DNA of 54,471 nucleotides, the filler included, from Dirinaria sp. TL-2023a (lineage: Eukaryota), in assembly GCA_051941275.1 (NCBI GenBank). It is 2 parts of 2 records of this genome, joined end to end, with 100 filler letters (N's around TTAATTAATTAA, not from the genome) between each part and the next. Parts side by side here need not be neighbours in the genome. Positions count along the whole stretch, not along the records: positions 1 to 27,192 come from JAVEBF010000147.1; 1 more part is not named here. The stretch is one strand, 5' to 3'. Both the position numbers and the translations under genes were made by a program. Shown piece by piece: positions 13,590-49,830 of this stretch; the first letter of the stretch is position 1; each line of letters starts with the position of its first letter. The notes under the pieces were generated by a model. The model ran no database searches. It was not told the origin of the DNA and saw only the letters and a list, made by a program, of their open reading frames with translations.

Positions 13590-13790
13590 CGAAGTGGACC
13601 CGCAAATCATCGATCACAGTCAGTAAGCAGATCTCCTAATCTACCTCATATGACCTTCATCACTGCGTCGTTGAAGCTTTTGTACAACCCGTCGATATCG
13701 GGTTCCACGATCACTACTTTGGCCTCTGGATACCAGACCGCCCTCCTAAACCCTATGCGCTTGCCCCAAATCGTTTGAATGCGTGGTTTT
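13590..13790 (-). pseudogene. Relic of a fungal P-loop sulfotransferase-like (Sulfotransfer_4-type) gene
   Basis: Minus-strand translation ...YPEAKVVIVEPDIDGLYKSFNDAVMKVI*GRLGDLL... resembles the family signature YPDAKVILxxRDxxxWYKS. Interrupted by stops; no intact ORF. Confidence 0.5.
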
Positions 13791-14829
13791 GTTCTGAAGC
13801 AGCGTTGAGTGAATTATTTCATAGAGACCTACGCTATCTTGGTCAAGATCTACTCATTAAGGCTTTATGGCGGCATAAGGAAAGGTGCTGATCATATCTG
13901 TATTGAGGCCCATTGACGCTAAGTGCTTTTCTCATTCGGCACGGTCTAAAACCCTTCGATTGGGCGCTGAGAACTTTCATGTCCTACGTTAGCTGTGTTG
14001 CATTCAGTGAAACGAAAGAGCATACGGTAGTGACTCCGTGGTTTTGTGATTTACATCGAGTTCGTCCTAAAATTCCATCTTTTGAAATACCAAATCACTT
14101 TTGTCCCTTTTCCACCCTATTGGCCGAAGTTGTCTCGAAGTGAAGATACATCTCTGCCTAGAACTTGTCTACACAACCACTGCTGTGTGGTATAGCCTTA
14201 GGTGATACTTTGAAGAAACTCATAGCTCCCATCTGCAAAATTCACAGGCGAATCGCGGCTGTTAGGGCTTATATATCCTGCAGATAAAAGCGTTGTGAAG
14301 CCATCTTCACGGTGCTCGCTCTATGCTGGTGTTCAATCTGGTGGAAAATTGTACAACCTTCAGCGCGAAAGAGCAATTCGCTGAGTAGGAGCAGTCATAT
14401 TTGAAGCAGAAACCAACCCAGCAGTTGACGGGACTGGCCTCGGAAGCATGAGAATCCAGAATCGTTCGGTAAGAGAGGATGTAGCGAAGACGGAAACGAT
14501 GACCACGTGCTCAATTTCAAGATGGAAGGCAGTCGAAGTGCTGACGTCTGACAAGTAGTTGCGGTTCTAGATGACCTGTCGGCTAGCAGTAGCACCTTTC
14601 AAAGCCTTTGCAATAAAGGGAAACTACAAAAGTAATTTGATAGGTGAAAAATGTAAAAGAGTAAGAGCCACTTCAATAGCAATTCGAATCTCAGTATGAT
14701 GCCCAGCAGACACGTAGTGTGAAAGATCGTAATTAGATATGTTGAAATACAAAAATGAATCTCAGATCCTTATCTTAGCACAATCTGATCTATCCGATAT
14801 ATATTTAAATTCGAGTGGAAGTTATCAGT

Positions 14830-14979
14830 AAGCGGGTAGTTTGGCCGAGTGGAAACACTCAATTGCCGACATCTTCAAGATGAACCCAAAAACCCCCATG
14901 AAGCCAAACCAATGCCGAGGGGTTTGGTAAGGTCCGCAGTTCGAATCTCGAACTTTCGGACCTGAGCTTTTGACTTTTT
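14830..14979 (+). ncRNA. Candidate RNA polymerase III transcript (~140 nt) with tRNA-type A/B boxes and four consecutive hairpins; not a canonical tRNA
   Basis: TATATATTTAAA 14798-14809; A box TGGCCGAGTGG 14842-14852; B box-like GTTCGAATC 14939-14947; T4/T5 terminators at 14968-14971 and 14975-14979. Stems: GGTAGTT/AATTGCC enclosing GAGTG-GAAA-CACTC; CATCT/AGATG; GCCAAACC/GGTTTGGT; GGTCCG/CGGACC enclosing AGTTCGA/TCGAACT. Confidence 0.65.
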
Positions 14980-16047
14980 CTTCTTTTGCTTTCTTCTAAT
15001 TCCTTTTTCTTGTTAATGCTGGCACAATGTACGGATGTTGAGTTATTTGGTGGGTGGGTAGCCTCGTAAGAGTACCATAAGAGCTGAATTTGCACACAGT
15101 CACAATCTTGGTTTTTTGGCAGGAGAGAGGGTTGGTGGCACGTGATGCGAGAAGCGAGCTTAGGGCTGCGCTAGAGGACTACGCTTTAGTACGAAGATTT
15201 ATGATGTAACATTAGAGCTTGCGAGCACCTTTCTGCTTACTATACTAATGCTTTGACTCCTCACAATTCGTTCCTATGTACATAGAAAGCGGTACCGGCA
15301 ACGAGGATCGATGGGGGATCGATAATGATGATGAAAGCATAGTTCAGCGACAAGGCATAGCAGGCCACTTAAAGGGGCTGCCGATAAAGGCGCAATGAAC
15401 GGACTAGTAGTGCTTAATTACACTCATCGTCTTTGAATTAATGTTATTAGAAGGTAGACGGAATAGATGGGTTATTAAAGAAAGGATTTGGGGAATAGGA
15501 ATAGGTATTACAGCCAGAAACGGTAAGCATGGTGGCTGCACTCAACAGTGTAGTGTGCTGGATGCAGCATTTCTGATGTCCGCCTCTGTTCGCCCTTGAA
15601 AGAAGCAAAAGATACTTTCTTACGATGATATGACCCCGCAGCAAGAAGCTTGTCTCCCTCTGAAGCGGCAACGAAGTATTTGCCTTGGGGCATCTACACT
15701 CACTACACCTGTAGAGCGTCTAAAGTGTCCATGATGGAACTACGGCTATCGTAGGTCTGATTAGTTTAGCATTTACTATTCTCGAATGCTCCTACAACAC
15801 CTGACTTTGACGAGTCCTTGCAGTGGAGATTCGGTGACGCTGCGGAAAGCCTCGGTAGTGCTCAGTCGGTGTAAGGCCGGGAATAATCGATCTTGACCAA
15901 TTAATCAAGGCCCATGCCTTGATGCCCTTCGAGGCTATGGGTACGGTAACCCAAACGGTGCATCGAGATAAACTCGTGAGGGTCACCGATTAAGTCGACC
16001 ATTCTGTGGGAGGCTTTAACGGATGAATCTCAAATTGTCTCAGTCGT

Positions 16048-16791
16048 CTACTCCATTGCCTGACCCAGCGCTACGATACTGAATTCCAAATCTTCTGATT
16101 TGGCGTGTTGCATAAATGTCCTGACGCCTAAACTCAGCGCACGATCGCTGAGTGCATCCTCCTCCGGCTTGAGACTGCCGCGATCAACGGGTCCATTCAT
16201 CCCACCATTAAGCTCCCATAGATGCCCGTCATCTGCTTTGACAAAGCAAATAAAGTGGTAGCCATTGTCTTCCTCGGGCAATGGAGCTTTGGTGTCGCCT
16301 TTTCGCGCAGCAGCCATGTGAGCGTCCTCCAGGGCTTGGGAGTTGTAGAGTAAATCTGCTCTCGGGTTTGGCCCCAATGGCAATGCTTCCTTTAGAAGTT
16401 TATCCAGATCCGAACCAGCGAGGATGTAGTCTCTTGCTCCTCCATTGCTGACAGCGTGCAGCAATCCAATGAGCCCGCATGCGTGACCTATAGTCTGCTT
16501 AAACCACATAACAGGCTCCTGCTCGCCGGAGCCTGTATACGGCTTTAAGTCAGCATCCTCTTGGTCTCGGGCTCTGTGGTAGACATTTTGCGGGCAAATA
16601 AAAAGCAACGCGTATACAGGACGTGGTAAGAACGCTAGGAATGAAGGTTCGTCTATGCTGTAAATATCATAGAAACCTAATTTCGGAGAGACGCCGAGAT
16701 GGTGGACGAGGTGGCTGAACACTTCGGGATTGTTCTCGAGTGGTATGAAGGTCTTCTTGGGAACACCGTTAGTTATGATCGTTGATGCCAT
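16048..16791 (-). CDS. Ubiquitin C-terminal hydrolase (peptidase C12, YUH1/UCH-L3-like), intronless
   Basis: FIPLENNPEVF, PRPVYALLF, FKQTIGHACG (Gln/Cys), GYHFICFVK (His), LWELNGG (Asn at the Asp position), FSIVAL C-terminus. Likely start MASTIITNG at 16791 rather than the ORF-track start at 16857. Confidence 0.92.
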   Translation of the reverse strand: MASTIITNGVPKKTFIPLENNPEVFSHLVHHLGVSPKLGFYDIYSIDEPSFLAFLPRPVYALLFICPQNVYHRARDQEDADLKPYTGSGEQEPVMWFKQTIGHACGLIGLLHAVSNGGARDYILAGSDLDKLLKEALPLGPNPRADLLYNSQALEDAHMAAARKGDTKAPLPEEDNGYHFICFVKADDGHLWELNGGMNGPVDRGSLKPEEDALSDRALSLGVRTFMQHAKSEDLEFSIVALGQAME

Positions 16792-18097
16792 AATCTTTGT
16801 CGATCGAGACTCGTTCCTGAGACATGAATATGAATGTGCTTGCACCGTGTGAGTCATAAGGTATGAGGTAGGTCGGTTCTTTATGCAAAGCCCTCAGCGA
16901 GCCCTAAGATGTGGCGCGTGGCGCGTTATGGGATTGCTCCCGAAACCAACAAGATCTCCTCATGACTCGCGAGTGTGTTTTCCGCATTCATCACTTAGAT
17001 GTCTCAGAGTCTTAGCACGGAGTTGCACCGGTGGCCGATGCTGTCCCCCCCTATTTTTTTTTTTTTTTTTTTTGCCCATTTTCAGTCTCAACAGATCTCA
17101 TGAATCAGTCCTCTATGTTCGACTGCCCTCAGATGATATCTCTAGCTTCTGCCGATGATCGAGGGAGATGAGTACTGCCATCAACAAATTGACTACCGGT
17201 AGTCACAATTCAAGAATTATCATCACTCTATCCGGAAGTATACATAGGCTACGGAACGGCTCATCATTCAGGTAGCCTACTAAAGCTTTTACCACCCAAT
17301 GAAGGGACGAAGAGGCAAACGATTCTATGCGGATTGGGGAATCCTCCGGTCAGCTCGAAGCCAAGCACTGTGAGTAATGATCAGATGTTTCTGTCTACAT
17401 TATCGTTGTTAAAGCAGCTTTCCACACCTGGAGGCTTCCCGCAGGCGCACGGAACCGAACTAGGCGCAACGAATGATACCTTGATCGCTCCGCCTAAATG
17501 CTCGTGCTACGTCTCGAAGTCCGACTTGTGGCCAGCTTGGTCATTCCTGACGTCAGCCTGTAAAGTGTCGATGTCTTCATAGGTAATTGTGATCATCACG
17601 GACTGCTTGCATGCATGGCGCTTTTCCGCTCTCGGCGGAATGTGCAAGCCACCTTCTTCGGGAACAGCTGAGGCTCACCACGCTGCTCTTGAACCTGGCT
17701 CTGCGCTATTGCCATATCAATAGAACGCAGGTAGGATGCACATCCTAGCTTCTCATGCTGCTTTAAGGGCGCAGACTTTATTATCGATGAAGCTTCTAGG
17801 CCTCGAATGAGAACCAATCGAGTTGCTTCATAGGCTTATTTATGCCGATTTGAATATGGAAAAAGGATATTGAGAGTTATGGCCATATTCACAAGGGGCA
17901 AGATCTTCAAGATCTGCCCTGCGCGAGCTTTGAGTTTCCAATATCACCGGATTCTAATCACCGCAAAGTGCCGCGGAGTCGTTGGCTTTAGTCTTTATTC
18001 TTCTTTCCCGTCCCTGTGCGTCGAACTCGCTATAAGAACACCTTCGAAGACTGTGCCATTGATCATAAAAAATTCCTAGAAGTATCTTTCACAGGCC

Positions 18098-20159
18098 ATG
18101 GAACAGCAGCATGGTTACGTGCCTCCCAAAGAGGACGCCTGGGGACCAACGCCAGCGGTCAAAAGGCTCATCATTTGTTGCGATGGGACTTGGCAGGCGT
18201 CAAATCATGCTACTCAGGAAATCCCCTCAAATGTTGCAAAGATATCGCATGCTATTTCTAAGACGTATGTTGACAAGAACAACCAAGCTGCGCCGCAGAT
18301 AGTGTACTATGATGCTGGGGTGGCGACAGCAGGCGTTCTTGACAAAGCTCTAGCTGGTGAGTCACCTTTGATTTCGCTTTTCGAAGCCCTCTGGGTCATC
18401 TCTTGTGGAGCTTTATTTTGGTAGCGCTGTGCCTCCTGCACATAGCTTGCTATGTCATTTCCATCCTGTTTTTGGTCTGAGGAAGATACTACATCATCTT
18501 GCGCTTTGGCCAATTCTACGATCTAGGCGTTCATTTTCCTTCATCCAGTACTCACTAGCCAGAAGTGCAACATCACGAACTTGACCATGTGCGCAAGCTG
18601 AGAGTAATTAGGGTACTTTGGGTCTGGGCTTGACGAAAATGTCTGCGAAGCCTACAATTTCTTAGCCAATAACTATAATCCTGGCGACGAAGTTTTCTTC
18701 TTCGGATTCTCTCGCGGCGCCTATACTGCGCGCGCCACCGCTGGCTTAGTAGCCCGTGTTGGGATTTGCCAAGATATCCAGATGCCTCGGTTCTGGGAGA
18801 TGTACAACGTCTACAAGAGTAAAGACTTTGCGACGCCGATTGAACAAACCACGTGGGGGAAGTATAATAAGGAAATTGCTGAAAAGCCTGAGAAAGACAT
18901 GAAGGAAGGAGACTGGCTGACCATCACTCCCGGAGACGATCAAATTGAACCGTATAGGGTCCGAAAAGGAGATGGAGATTCGTTCTTGTCGTATTGCCAT
19001 AAGCCAGTCAACATCAAGGTCGTGGGAGTTTTTGACACGGTCGGCTCATTGGGTTATCCAGAGAATAGATTTGTCGATGTTAGCAAATGGAACAAGCCAT
19101 ACGCTTTTCACAACACAGACTTACATCCCGGTAAGTACTCTATCCAGCCAAATTTAGATCATCTAGCTCAATAAATTCTCCCTAGAAATCGAGAATGCTT
19201 TCCACGCACTCGCTCTTGACGAACGCCGCAAACCCTTCGGTCCGACTATGTGGAACATGCCAGAGAGCAACGACCGTACGACTTTAATCCAATGCTGGTT
19301 CCCTGGCGTGCATGTCAACATTGGTGGCGGCAGCGAAGACGGTCTCAAACGTGAATCGAAAGGTGATCTAGAAACTATGGCCAACACCACATTCGCCTGG
19401 ATGGTCGATCGATGTCGGCCGTTCCTACGCTTCGAGGACAAGGTTCTTGCTCACATCATGTCCCAGTATTTCAACTCTCTCGAAAGACTTGCTGTTCGCC
19501 ATAAAGAGGCTCAGAAGAAAGATCCAAAGCTTGGGGAGGTGAACTACGGTTGGGGAGTTGGCCCCTATCAAAAAGATTTCAAAGGTTTGATGAACTACAT
19601 TTCGGGAGATCTAGTGCGCACACCCGGCCATTACCCTGCGAAGCGAGATACGAGAGAATATATTCACCCGGTTGTGTTCCACGCCCAAAAATCCCAAAAA
19701 TATGCATCTCCGGCCCTTGAGGGTTTCACTCGTATGCTCAACGGAGACGGACAAGGCCATTCTTGGGTCAAGACTTACACGCCAAAAGATGTAGAAAGCT
19801 GGAGCGAATGGGCTGGCTCACTCTTTAACCGCCGCACTGTTAAGAAGGCAGCCGAAGCTATCACTGTCACAATCCCGGAGTTCGTGATTCCAAAGATGGT
19901 GGAGCAGCAAGGACCGTATAGTCATAGGAGTTACTGGGCAAATCCCTTGGAGCGGCTTCTGATCGTCAGCAACCTATGGACTGAAGCGCAGTCGCAGCAA
20001 GCATTTGAGAGCGAGGAGCAATTCCGCAAGAGGGTCGATATTGTGAAGGAGAACAAGACGGCCAGTGAGTACTTGATGCAGCTTGATCGAGACAATCGAG
20101 GAACAAAATTCATTGGTGAAGACAAGACCTGGGGAACGCCAGTCGAGGGGGCTAAGTAA
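18098..20159 (+). CDS. DUF2235 / T6SS Tle1-like phospholipase-domain alpha/beta hydrolase (exons 18098-18356, 18612-19130, ~19186-20159)
   Basis: KRLIICCDGTW, SNVAKI, FFFGFSRGAYTAR (nucleophile Ser), VGVFDTVGSLG (Asp), AFHALALDERR, WFPGVHVNIGGG (His). Canonical GT-AG introns keep the frame. Confidence 0.92.
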
Positions 20160-47457: not shown

Positions 47458-48843
47458 TAGGGCTCAACAGCTGACGACCGACAATCGAGCATCAGAGCTA
47501 TAAGCGCAGGTGATGCAAGAATGAACGGATGAGTGAAATTAAAATGTCCGTATTTGCATCTTCTTGAGGGCTGAAAAGCAACCTTGCACATGGCTGGATC
47601 ATCAGTAGCACAATGGGGAGCGCCGCAGAACGAGATTACGCGTTTCATCATGGCCTATGCAGTCATGCTTTGACTGCGCAGCTGTCTACACATCGTTTCC
47701 GGCGATGAATGGAAGTAAAGCTGCCTCATCGAGCAAAGACGGCATCAGATACGGCATAGTCATATCAATCAAGATCCGGAACCATTTAGTCCAATAGCCA
47801 CTTTGACCCAGAGTTTTTTACAGATCGAGGGGCATATTTCACTCCGGATAAGTTGGCTTGTACCATCGCACAGTGATGACAAGGCTGGCCAATCTAATTC
47901 TTAGAGCTAGAGCATCCAAGACTCTTCAAGGGAGGTATGCTCTCGGAAAGTTGCGCAGATGAGTTTCCAGCACGGCGATGTGCGAGACTAAAGGGATACC
48001 TTAGTGCATGAGACACGCCCAATCCCCACATTATGCAAGGCTGAAACGGCTACATGTCGCTCGATGAGGCCCAGTCTCAAAGGTGATTTAGCTGATCTAA
48101 AACAATCGCGCAGTAAAAAGGGGTTCGAACATCTGAGAGTGTCTTCGAGAAGATTGCTACAATGAATCTTGAAAACCCTCAACCGACATTTCGTCGACTC
48201 ATACTGAGGACACCAGAGTGCCTTGCTTGGCTAGGGGGAAGTGTCTGGATGCCTCCTCAGGCTAACAGCAGTCACGCAGGGACGGCATCGCCACCTGCAA
48301 TGCCACCTCGTGGAAATGTGGGGCAGAACGATGTGTGACGATTGTCTGAAAGGGCAGATAGTAGTAGGCGAAGCAATGAATGGGTCCGGGGTGTTAGTAG
48401 AATTGAACCATGAGAAACTCAGACAGGGATCCTCCTTACGGAGGTACAGTTCATGAAAAATCGAAGACACTACGAAGACGATGACTGGGCGGACAGCCGA
48501 GCACCCCTGTAACGAATCTTGGCGGTGACGTAGCAAGTACCGTATCTTAGGTAAGGTAAGGTAACTCGGTAAGTATAATTCTCTTATGTAAGCTAGGTAC
48601 TGACAGGTAACAACTTATGAAGATCCTCCTTCTGATATTGTACGATTTTATGCAAGGTACACATTTTGTGCTTCTCTACATGAAAGATCTTCTTTCATTG
48701 ATACGACATCACTTCCACATCAAGATGAGGGTCACTGTCCCTTTTCAGCTTAGAATGCATCCATAATGCTCTCCGTCTACGTTACTCAGGGTTCGCAGGA
48801 CGACGGGCTAAGAACGACAACTTAACCACTACACCATTGTACC

Positions 48844-48924
48844 AGCGCCCTTGGGAATCGAACCCAATATGAGATAAATTACATCTCACTGACTACAGGC
48901 TATCCAGACCCGAAGACCAGCACT
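48844..48924 (-). other. tRNA-like remnant (perfect T-arm with B box, partial acceptor pairing)
   Basis: Minus strand: AGTGCT...GGTCTTCGGGTC...TGAGAT(7 nt)ATCTCA TA TTGGG-TTCGATT-CCCAA GGGCGCT. No canonical D arm or anticodon arm. Confidence 0.35.
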
Positions 48925-49054
48925 TTATTATTCTGAGCGTTTGCTACCGGTCAACCCAAAATTTAAAACTAGCCACTACCCGTAGGTCCCCTACTAGATA
49001 GACCAGATGCCATCTAGTAGGCGCCACCTCAACCGCCAGAGATCCCAATTCTAG

Positions 49055-49830
49055 GCCCATTGTGCGCGTCACCCCGGACGAGCTGAATGCCAATGGCCCT
49101 TTCCTTGTCCCATAGGCACTCTCCTGGGCGACCGGGGTCGCTAGTGGTCATGGTTTACATCGAACTAGTCGAGAGGCCATGGCTAACATGTGTTCCAAGG
49201 ACCCGATCAGGCGGCTGAAACAGATCATGAAGAGATCATTAAACACCTTCATCGCCAGACTCGAAGAAGCTCGAATGAAAGGCGTGAAGATTCGAGTGTT
49301 GCACATGTTCAGGGCCTTTACCAACGACGTAATCTCGGAATATGCGTACGGCTTCAGTCCAGATTGAATGACTGAACCTCGTTTCAACCATGCCTTCCTT
49401 CAGATGATAATAGATGATCGCAAAGCTATGTTCCTATTTAGATCTGAATTTTTAACAGCTAGACGGTTTCCATGCAGTCTCGGCTTATGCATTCCAATTG
49501 AAATGGTTCCTGCCGTTGTTATTCATGCTTCCTAAATCAAACGTGCGGCAACTTATGCAGGATTCGAGAGCTTTATCAGCTTTAGAAAGGTGACATTCCA
49601 TCTGGGTCTTGTGTTCATTTGCATTTGACGGGTCTGCGGGAACTTTCAAGTAATATAGAACGAAAGAGTAATGGACGATCATCACGAGTCCAAGGATCGA
49701 TCAACCATATTCGACGAGATCCTCGGAAGCAGACTGCTTGAAGAGGATAAGAGCCCCTGCGATGACTGCAAGCCCCACAGAAGATTCCAGCCGGAGGCAC
49801 AATGACGACGGCTTTGATCTTCAGCGTAGG
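49055..49830 (+). pseudogene. Cytochrome P450 pseudogene (trichodiene-oxygenase-like clan), N-terminal half only
   Basis: GPIVRVTPDEL, HGLHRTSR...SKDPIRRL, FRAFTNDVISEYAYG, PTIFDEILGSRLLEEDKSP, degraded I-helix AGGTMTTA. Several stops and frameshifts; no ExxR or heme-Cys motif found downstream. Confidence 0.85.

Follow-up and report, generated by a model that had tools for sequence, protein, structure and literature searches.

A probable relic of a tRNA-Leu(CAA) gene that keeps its Pol III promoter signals in a fungal intergenic spacer

Relics and Derivatives of tRNA Genes

Relics of tRNA genes that retain Pol III signals are already known as a class. In Saccharomyces cerevisiae, ZOD1 and iYGR033c/ETC9 are the remains of tRNA-Ile and tRNA-Arg genes; they lie in intergenic spacers, can no longer give a tRNA and still bind the Pol III machinery. 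In yeast, the A box is found at +8, the start site lies 10-12 nt upstream, and distances between the A and B boxes run from 31 to 93 nt (PMC5356446, in part).

Other units are derived from or linked to tRNA genes. BC1 RNA of rodents has a 5' domain that derives from tRNA-Ala and has turned into a stem-loop (PMC4923876, in part). In Aspergillus fumigatus, the AfuSINE2 elements are tRNA-related sequences of 140-493 bp in which Pol III A and B boxes and an oligo-T tract are found; they occur once or in few copies, and transcription is described for five of the eight (PMC5063351, in part). The major milRNAs of Neurospora are Pol III-dependent, and the source of milR-4 is a transcript that contains tRNAs and is cut by RNase Z (PMC3547838, in part).

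The locus considered here is found on the plus strand at positions 14835-14979 of a 54-kb window (the whole stretch of DNA analysed, 54,471 nucleotides) from Dirinaria sp. TL-2023a. Its features point to a relic of a leucine tRNA gene, tRNA-Leu(CAA), in which a type-2 Pol III promoter probably still works, in the manner of ZOD1 and iYGR033c. It is most likely a relic of a known sort and no proven new RNA gene. For now it looks like an ordinary tRNA pseudogene, one whose promoter signals are unusually well preserved.

Pol III Signals in the UCH-RFC1 Spacer

The element is alone in a 3.3-kb gene-free spacer, with a UCH (Peptidase_C12) gene on one side and RFC1 on the other, both on the same strand. 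No protein-coding signal above the cut-off was found among the 32 ORFs of the spacer (46-103 aa) when compared with Pfam; there was one weak match, to Sulfotransfer_4 (E 0.045). The 54-kb window holds no second copy and no extended duplication of the element. The B-box region is matched at 13 of 14 positions by an upstream stretch at 14679-14692, a borderline score that was reached in 4 of 200 shuffles.

A type-2 Pol III gene was defined by an A box of the form TRGCNNAGTGG at about +8, a B box with the core GGTTCGANTCC 31-93 nt downstream, and an oligo-T shortly after. The locus has all three, with 86 nt from the end of the A box to the B-box core (Table 1). The initial annotation had described a full layout of TATA, A box, B box and oligo-T, and every one of these signals was found, including the TATA that it placed about 30 bp upstream. 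Its B-box spacing of about 87 nt holds as well, save that the exact gap is one of 86 nt. Upstream, the TATA-like run belongs to a rare kind of sequence: over the two strands of the window, 109 kb in all, TATAWAW occurs only 16 times. The first of the two T runs is a T4, which is weak as a terminator in fungi; more T runs follow the T5, up to about 15008. Only one locus in the 54-kb window has a strict A box with a B box and then a T run downstream. The Pol III layout is complete and goes beyond chance.

Table 1. Positions of the promoter, tRNA-derived and predicted structural features of the locus
Feature	Sequence or content	Position	Strand	Remarks
TATA-like run	TATATATTTAAA	14798-14809	+	26-37 nt before the tRNA-like 5' end; at about -25 to -30 relative to the expected Pol III start
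Acceptor-stem 5' strand relic	GGTAGTT	14835-14841	+	Pairs 6/7 with AACTTTC (14951-14957), register shifted by 1 nt
A box	TGGCCGAGTGG	14842-14852	+	Pattern search; 11/11 to TRGCNNAGTGG; first base at +8, counted from the tRNA-like 5' end
Hairpin 1 (predicted)	GGC/GCC around GAGUG-GAAA-CACUC	14843-14867	+	Inner stem pair probability 0.99-1.00
Hairpin 2 (predicted)	CAUCU-UCA-AGAUG	14870-14882	+	Pair probabilities 0.78-0.97; holds the anticodon-loop relic
Anticodon-loop relic	TTCAAG	14874-14879	+	CAA at 14876-14878
Intron-equivalent	34 nt, includes AACCCAAAAACCCCC and the 5' strand of hairpin 3	14880-14913	+	Directly after CAAG
Hairpin 3 (predicted)	GCCAAACC/GGUUUGGU	14903-14928	+	Pair probabilities 0.92-0.96; 3' strand in the variable-arm equivalent
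Hairpin 4 (predicted)	GGUCCG..AGUUCGA-AUC-UCGAACU..CGGACC	14931-14962	+	13 bp, interrupted; pair probabilities 0.75-1.00
B-box core	GTTCGAATC	14939-14947	+	Pattern search
Pol III terminator zone	T4 (14968-14971) and T5 (14975-14979)	14968-14979	+	T4 starts 20 nt past the B-box core; T5 lies 3 nt past T4

None of the searches for a tRNA or a known RNA family recognized the locus. ARAGORN found no tRNA gene in the window, and with introns allowed and thresholds lowered it returned only poor sub-threshold models. Among 9504 single-deletion variants, none was called a tRNA, with or without an extra canonical intron. Rfam gave no match at gathering score across the whole window, with U6, SRP, RNase P/MRP, 5S, snR52 and the Afu sRNAs among the families compared. 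Within 14600-15100 there was no Rfam tRNA match at E<=10; the matches seen there were unrelated and sub-threshold (E 0.86-9.3). These results agree with two earlier statements, that no cloverleaf can form and that hallmarks of U6, SRP, RNase P/MRP and 5S were not recognized, and they extend the second to the Afu sRNA families.

The same results weigh on the two most extreme readings, an unusual but still functional tRNA-Leu gene whose introns are additional or misplaced and, at the other end, a chance resemblance. The 18 nt at the 5' end, the CAAG, the T loop and the geometry of the gene are all tRNA-like. A functional tRNA is at odds with the variants that went unrecognized even when a further canonical intron was allowed, and with a T stem and an anticodon stem that keep only 2/5 and 0/5 of their pairs. 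Chance is at odds with an A box, B box, TATA-like run and T runs that come in the right order and spacing, once in the window. Taken as one alternative, these extremes are hardly credible.

A snoRNA reading was also considered and rejected. A box C/D RNA was taken to have a C box (RUGAUGA) near its 5' end, a D box (CUGA) near its 3' end and a terminal stem. By eye, the locus offers AAGAUGA (14877-14883, 6/7) and CUGA (14962-14965), but the flanks pair at 1 of 4 positions, hairpin 4 encloses what would be the guide, and no Rfam snoRNA was matched. The H/ACA reading was ruled out on anatomy.

Descent from a tRNA-Leu(CAA) Gene

The tRNA-Leu(CAA) genes shown in PMC4536317 have the following order: a 7-nt acceptor strand, TGGCCGAGTGG, the rest of the D loop, a 5-nt stem, (C/T)TCAAG, an intron of 32-38 nt, 26 nt, and TTCGAAT. 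The element follows this order part by part, with 60 nt from CAAG to TTCGAAT. Its A box is identical to that of the Leu(CAA) genes of C. elegans in the same paper, and it shares with Leu(CAA) genes the B-box core, an insert of intron size after CAAG and an equal distance from the B box to the terminator. The insert length of 34 nt is a count made against the exon layout of the genes in PMC4536317. The departures in length are few: 7 nt more in the D loop, the 34-nt intron-equivalent, and 1 nt missing near the 3' end. The earlier proposal that the locus derives from tRNA-Leu(CAA) is thus borne out by a collinearity that extends to the intron-containing form of the gene. The ancestor was probably a tRNA-Leu(CAA) gene with an intron, in the nuclear genome of an ascomycete, to judge from worm and yeast sequences in published papers and from general knowledge of such genes.

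What sets the element apart from Leu(CAA) genes is the loss of the anticodon stem, the T stem, the variable stem and the acceptor register, along with the longer D loop. In the canonical register, pairing amounts to 0/5 in the anticodon stem, 2/5 in the T stem and 4/7 in the acceptor stem, which reaches 6/7 only when shifted by 1 nt. This shifted acceptor pairing was seen in a low-threshold ARAGORN model, and its predicted probability is about 0. The two surviving T-stem pairs fall inside the B box. The anticodon and T stems are thus at about chance level, and the promoter boxes are intact, which suggests that the promoter has been preferentially kept. By a rough tally, at least 8 pairs are broken in 16 stem sites outside the boxes, against 0 changes among the constrained sites of the boxes, which number about 18. 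Both the degree of decay and the argument for selection on the boxes are rough, because the ancestor is drawn from genes of other organisms, worm and yeast, and from general knowledge. A few indels or template switches, and not many substitutions, could have broken several stems, which would allow for a young neutral pseudogene. RIP was considered as the cause of decay and set aside; by eye, C-to-T and G-to-A changes do not make up most of the differences from a canonical stem.

The same anatomy bears on whether the locus might be a low-copy tRNA-derived SINE or a retroposed tRNA-like element of the AfuSINE2 type. Both are low-copy, tRNA-related sequences of ascomycetes that carry A and B boxes and an oligo-T tract; in size and signals the element fits the AfuSINE2 description, and some AfuSINE2 elements are transcribed (PMC5063351, in part). 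The marks of retroposition are another matter. AfuSINE2 elements have target-site duplications and a tRNA-unrelated extension, as told in the portion of PMC5063351 that covers them, and the element has neither: the longest word common to both flanks is 5 nt, a length reached in 944 of 1000 shuffles, and tRNA parts plus the intron-sized insert account for its full length. It carries no A-rich or LINE-like tail, and only one copy was found, copies being judged within the 54-kb window. The intron-equivalent has been kept, which is unexpected in a copy retroposed from a mature tRNA, and the main text of PMC5063351 mentions neither an AfuSINE derived from tRNA-Leu nor a match to the GCCGAGTGG motif. 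A SINE origin is improbable.

Searches beyond the window, in metagenomes and in prokaryote genome and viral contigs, gave no relatives. A metagenome scan for the pattern of an A box, 61-91 nt and a B-box hairpin returned a single locus, judged a chance match; it is GC-rich, looks like bacterial coding sequence and has no tRNA by ARAGORN. The same pattern had no match in prokaryote genome contigs. The 18-nt 5' end had three chance matches in genome contigs, none with a tRNA, and none in viral contigs. No description of a Pol III RNA derived from Leu(CAA) in filamentous fungi was found in the open-access literature searched.

Predicted Fold and Its Bearing on an RNA Function

In place of a cloverleaf, the predicted fold of 14824-14979 has four local hairpins, with pair probabilities of at least 0.75, and mostly at least 0.9, in the main helices. 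They correspond to the GAAA-tetraloop stem, the CATCT/AGATG stem, the 8-bp stem and the interrupted 13-bp 3' stem of the initial annotation, all four of which reappear at that level. The outer GGC/GCC of hairpin 1 is the D-stem equivalent, 1 nt out of register, and its pair probability varies between 0.47 and 0.83 with the stretch folded (three were used), standing at 0.82-0.83 in the fold of 14824-14979. Hairpin 3 is missing from the centroid of the shorter fold. Hairpin 4 takes up the T-loop, the 3' strand of the T stem and the 3' strand of the acceptor. A C/A-rich linker had been described as unpaired; the stretch is there (14883-14897), but its CCC runs pair with the GGG at the 5' end (14834-14836) with a probability of 0.49 or 0.34.

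The minimum free energy is -46.6 kcal/mol (z = -3.71), and only 1 of 200 shuffles was equally stable. With correction for GC, 13 of 5434 windows of the same size in the 54-kb window are as stable or more so, which places the element in the top 0.24%; some of the 13 overlap one another and some lie in coding sequence. Only Watson-Crick pairs, with no mismatch, make up the four new helices, and G-U pairs are nearly unused. The minus strand folds equally well, also at -46.6. Taken together, the fold goes beyond chance only moderately.

These values count in favour of reading the locus as an exapted tRNA-derived small RNA, a true Pol III gene whose product of about 140-150 nt would act via its new fold of four hairpins, an RNP scaffold being one example. 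No damage is seen in the promoter, the TATA-like run or the terminator, the hairpins are predicted with high pair probabilities, the stability is seldom reached by shuffles or by other windows, and perfect Watson-Crick helices have appeared where the tRNA helices were lost. Stable new helices of this kind are not predicted by plain decay and leave room for selection at the RNA level. Nothing points to such selection over DNA palindromes, because the opposite strand folds equally and G-U pairs are almost absent. Moreover, 13 of the scanned windows are equally structured, hairpin 4 follows in part automatically from the TTCGAA palindrome of the T-loop and the CTCGA strand of the T stem, and no Rfam family was matched. 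An exapted RNA is judged unlikely, if the foremost of the alternatives. The initial annotation had taken the new fold as a sign of a new functional ncRNA; that claim finds no support, since the hairpins lie on what is probably a collinear relic of tRNA-Leu(CAA), with a stability that is not unique in the window and shows no strand bias.

A bolder and somewhat more doubtful form of this idea would make the locus a counterpart of BC1 in a filamentous ascomycete. A tRNA-Leu(CAA) gene would have been converted in place, and not retroposed, into a Pol III gene for an RNA of about 145 nt that would act through a new five-way-junction fold, in which a leader-trailer stem and four hairpins are joined by a single strand rich in C and A. 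Template-switch-type mutations would have given rise to the perfect local inverted repeats beside each promoter box. Like the element, BC1 RNA has a tRNA-derived 5' part, internal Pol III boxes, a stem-loop where a cloverleaf would be and a length of about 150 nt (from the part of PMC4923876 that deals with it). Unlike the element, BC1 was retroposed, its central domain is A-rich, and its RNP and function have been demonstrated; the element has no A-rich domain and no sign of retroposition.

The suggestion of a Dicer substrate transcribed by Pol III, a milRNA-type precursor or another, takes its appeal from the Pol III-dependent milRNAs of Neurospora and from milR-4 with its tRNA-containing transcript (PMC3547838, in part). 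A milRNA precursor was expected to have a hairpin arm of about 20 bp or more, giving a duplex of 19-25 nt. The longest helix here is 13 bp, broken by a bulge and an internal loop, and too short for such a duplex. The milR-4 tRNAs are intact and flank the hairpin, as given in the same portion of PMC3547838, whereas the tRNA part of the element is itself destroyed, so that no substrate for RNase Z is predicted. The milRNA-type precursor put forward earlier is therefore a poor anatomical fit, and any Dicer-substrate reading is very improbable.

Proposed Mechanism and Comparison with Known Relics

The relic of a tRNA-Leu(CAA) gene remains the preferred reading. What the analysis established is the set of sequence features, the match in order to a Leu(CAA) gene, the inability to pass as a tRNA and the predicted fold; factor binding, transcription, RNA fate and any function in the account that follows are inferred. 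The locus has lost the ability to make a tRNA, with the pairing of the anticodon and T stems and the acceptor register gone. The type-2 Pol III geometry has been kept whole: the TATA-like run, the A box at +8 and the B box are all present, and the T-run terminators lie as far downstream as is normal. TFIIIC would bind the A and B boxes and bring in TFIIIB and Pol III. Transcription from about 14824-14828 to the T4 and T5 runs would give a primary RNA of about 140-155 nt, which is predicted to fold into the four local hairpins and no cloverleaf. Because these hairpins replace the cloverleaf, the transcript would have no acceptor/T-arm minihelix for RNase P or RNase Z. Lacking such a substrate, the RNA would either be turned over or persist unprocessed, bound by La.

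Should the locus have been retained for some purpose, the simplest explanation would be the Pol III/TFIIIC complex itself. Such a complex might form a boundary or roadblock that separates the 3' end of UCH from the RFC1 promoter, as has been proposed for yeast tDNA relics.

ZOD1 and ETC9 are among the nearest counterparts of such a locus. The element has a recognizable origin in a tRNA gene and has lost the tRNA function, which is the kind of descent that they represent. It likewise lies in an intergenic spacer and can no longer give a tRNA, and weak transcription or a poised state would be expected of it as of them (PMC5356446, in part). The differences are in ancestry and in what has been kept. 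The element comes from another ancestor, a class II Leu(CAA) gene with an intron, and from another fungal lineage; it has kept the full gene length, the TATA-like run and the terminator, and it has gained stable local hairpins. ZOD1 and ETC9 are also defined by occupancy and conservation.

Significance

If TFIIIC and Pol III still bind it, the locus would show that outside budding yeast, too, a dead tRNA gene can be retained for the sake of its promoter. In its spacer, it could serve as a chromatin boundary or as a roadblock to Pol II between the same-strand UCH and RFC1 genes. It would also be a reminder that Pol III units of this sort escape genome annotation. If the RNA proved to be conserved and stable, the locus would represent a tRNA gene turning in place into a different structured RNA, which would be of moderate interest for the origins of Pol III genes.

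Promoter and Terminator Signals

The element, a candidate Pol III-type small RNA locus at 14798–14979 on the plus strand, carries every signal listed for it in the initial annotation, each at the place given there. Its A box matches the consensus at all 11 of 11 positions and lies at +8, a gap of 86 nt separates the A box from the B-box core, and the first T run begins 20 nt past the B box. In the excerpted part of a review, yeast Pol III genes have the A box at +8, an A–B distance of 31–93 nt, and a start site that precedes the mature 5′ end by 10–12 nt (PMC5356446). Because the A-box position and the A–B gap fit these excerpted values, the element has the geometry of a type-2 Pol III gene. 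The TATA-like run is unlikely to be there by chance, since TATAWAW occurs just 16 times in 109 kb (both strands of the window).

Features of the element and its surroundings
Feature	Positions	Strand	Remark
RFC1 gene	~9057 to ~12752	−	
55-aa open frame	13649–13813	−	in spacer
Upstream motif GCAATTCGAATCTC	14679–14692		resembles B-box region
TATA-like run TATATATTTAAA	14798–14809	+	
Upstream motif CGAGTGGAA	14812–14820		resembles A box
tRNA-like 5′ end GGTAGTT	14835–14841	+	
A box TGGCCGAGTGG	14842–14852	+	
TTCAAG	14874–14879	+	
B-box core GTTCGAATC	14939–14947	+	
Pyrimidine-rich tract	14967–15011	+	directly 3′ of element
T4	14968–14971	+	
T5	14975–14979	+	further T runs behind
Stable-fold stretch	15878–16035	both	
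UCH (Peptidase_C12 ubiquitin hydrolase) ORF	16048–16857	−	nearest protein-atlas clusters most commonly Ascomycota
303-aa ORF	19248–20159	+	
Second tRNA-like relic	48844–48924	−	48780–48843 (−) just after

The pyrimidine-rich tract contains three imperfect 16-nt repeats (CTTTTGACTTTTTCTT and variants) and gives back-up T runs for Pol III; it is similar, too, to the CT-rich tracts found in fungal Pol II promoters. Two short motifs upstream recall the internal boxes. One matches the B-box region (14936–14949) at 13 of 14 positions, a borderline similarity whose score is reached by 4 of 200 shuffles, and the other is identical over all 9 of its 9 positions to part of the A box. These copies could be small local duplications or chance.

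Genomic Setting

The window is eukaryotic, with a G+C content of ~48.7% and genes that look ascomycete-like. The element sits inside the 3.3-kb spacer separating RFC1 and UCH, 1.07 kb from the UCH stop codon (beyond the stop) and ~2.1 kb upstream of the RFC1 start. None of the 32 spacer ORFs (46–103 aa) reached the family cut-off in Pfam. The 55-aa frame gave a weak Sulfotransfer_4 match below the cut-off (E 0.045, 14 bits) and may be a decayed-gene trace or noise. Just beyond the UCH stop codon at 16048, the stable-fold stretch is, once corrected for G+C, among the window's most stable predicted folds, at −47 to −49 kcal/mol for each 134 nt; the prediction may reflect a 3′ UTR that is structured or else an inverted repeat. 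The first 54 residues of the 303-aa ORF match the end of a T6SS_Tle1-like_cat (DUF2235-type hydrolase) domain (E 3.5e-9), and this ORF probably represents a single exon within a larger fungal gene.

The flanks bear on whether the element is a low-copy tRNA-derived SINE, like AfuSINE2 as excerpted from PMC5063351. The flanks show no target-site duplication (the longest word common to them is 5 nt, a length reached by 944 of 1000 shuffles). The element has neither a tRNA-unrelated body nor an A-rich tail, occurs only once in the window, and still contains the intron-equivalent. A SINE is thus quite improbable.

Probable Descent from a tRNA-Leu(CAA) Gene

ARAGORN found no tRNA genes in the whole window and, with introns allowed and thresholds lowered, nothing but poor models. 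Rfam 15, a check proposed in the initial annotation, returned no family at gathering score in the window, and only unrelated weak matches, with no tRNA, in 14600–15100 at E ≤ 10. Removing each single segment of 1–99 nt from 14825–14985, as for a misplaced intron, gave 9504 variants, which were run through ARAGORN both with and without an additional canonical intron; it recognised a tRNA in none of them. These results bear out the annotation's statement that the element is not a cloverleaf. They also count against an odd functional tRNA, as does, against a chance assembly, the finding that a strict A box, B box, and T run occur in that order at one locus in the whole window, the element; the two readings together have very little probability. 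A metagenome scan gave one match, a GC-rich, tRNA-free, bacterial-coding-like stretch attributable to chance, and no relevant match came from scanning prokaryote and viral collections.

The seven C. elegans Leu(CAA) genes printed in PMC4536317 served as the reference set. In these printed genes, a 7-nt acceptor strand is followed by TGGCCGAGTGG, nine further D-arm nucleotides, a 5-nt stem, CTCAAG, and a 32–38-nt intron, and then by 26 nt of anticodon-stem, variable-arm, and T-stem sequence, TTCGAAT, and the 3′ strands of the T stem and acceptor. Compared with them, the element has the same order of parts, an identical A box, and the same B-box core. Its CAA comes 7 nt later because its D-loop equivalent is 16 nt rather than 9 nt. 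From CAAG to TTCGAAT there are 60 nt, equal to the 26 nt plus a 34-nt intron-equivalent, and the T run is placed as a tRNA gene terminator. Yeast tRNA-Leu(CAA) likewise resembles the element in its 5′ GG-T-GTTTGGCCGAG-GG pattern, in the variable-arm motif GGT...GTAAG, and in AGTTCGAATCTC.

Read from the sequence in the canonical tRNA register, the anticodon stem forms 0 of 5 pairs, the T stem 2 of 5 (both inside the B box), the D stem 2 of 3 (3 of 3 if shifted by 1 nt), and the acceptor 4 of 7 (6 of 7 if shifted by 1 nt). The shared order and these counts therefore indicate that an intron-containing tRNA-Leu(CAA) gene survives here as a collinear relic of full length, and collinearity with the printed genes agrees with the tRNA origin proposed initially. 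The helices appear to have decayed to about chance level, with the promoter positions apparently untouched.

The window also contains a second tRNA-like relic. Its T arm is perfect (TTGGG-TTCGATT-CCCAA), and it includes a variable-arm-like hairpin of 8 bp and an acceptor-like stem of 6 bp but lacks a D arm and an A box. Its Rfam matches are weak only (mascRNA-menRNA, E 0.62; tRNA-Sec, E 5.6), and ARAGORN with long introns gave a dubious tRNA-Arg(CCT) at 48843–49120 with a 186-nt intron. An A-box-like stretch, TGGTGTAGTGG, follows directly, as if the two were a decayed tandem tRNA gene pair. There are thus two tRNA relics in the window, and an intact tRNA gene is lacking.

Predicted Fold

The 134-nt core has a minimum free energy of −46.6 kcal/mol (z = −3.71), and 1 of 200 dinucleotide shuffles is as stable. 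In a separate fold of the likely primary transcript (14824–14979), the helices GAGUG/CACUC, CAUCU/AGAUG, 14903–14928, and 14931–14962 have pair probabilities of 0.75–1.00 and the short GGC/GCC helix 0.82–0.83; tRNA acceptor pairing is predicted at ~0. The hairpins described initially are thus upheld. The C/A-rich linker is not the plain single strand it was taken for, as its two CCC runs are predicted to compete for the 5′-end GGG (probabilities 0.49 and 0.34). Once leader and trailer are included, a terminal stem closes the molecule, and the predicted shape, a terminal stem with four hairpins, is that of the class II tRNA cloverleaf topology with every arm re-made.

In a G+C-corrected comparison of 5434 windows of 134 nt on both strands of the 54-kb window, 13 were as stable as the element or more, placing it in the top 0.24%; the 13 include scan positions that overlap one another and others within coding sequence. 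Folded as its opposite strand, the element has the same energy, −46.6. For these two reasons the predicted fold is not unique and lacks a strand signature favouring RNA over DNA palindromes. A functional RNA with a new fold, BC1-like in the sense of the excerpt of PMC4923876, is favoured by the perfect new helices and the z-score, but the absence of strand bias and the comparable structures elsewhere in the window make it rather unlikely. The suggested milRNA-type precursor (compare the excerpt of PMC3547838) is disfavoured by the longest helix, 13 interrupted base pairs, and is very improbable.

A Relic That May Still Engage Pol III

On balance, a tRNA-Leu(CAA) gene relic that still works as a Pol III/TFIIIC locus seems the likely identity of the element. 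We infer that the promoter was kept preferentially, because the boxes are intact and a TATA-like run and a terminator accompany them, beside stems that are randomised. At least 8 pairs are broken in 16 non-box stem sites, against 0 changes in ~18 constrained box sites, a rough count in which a few indels or template switches could together break several pairs and the ancestor is inferred. TFIIIC would bind the element, and Pol III would start near 14824–14828 and stop in the T4/T5 zone. The RNA would form four local hairpins, offer no acceptor/T-arm minihelix to RNase P or RNase Z, and then be degraded or stay as an unprocessed small RNA. The bound complex might plausibly form a boundary, or a roadblock, that separates UCH from RFC1.

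Yeast offers exact precedents for a tRNA-gene relic with a Pol III promoter, ZOD1 and iYGR033c/ETC9. The tRNA origin, Pol III layout, and non-cloverleaf form first proposed for the element are retained; the evidence does not establish the proposed undescribed structured RNA gene. The parsimonious view takes the element as one more case of an already known class, the tRNA gene relic whose Pol III promoter has been preserved.
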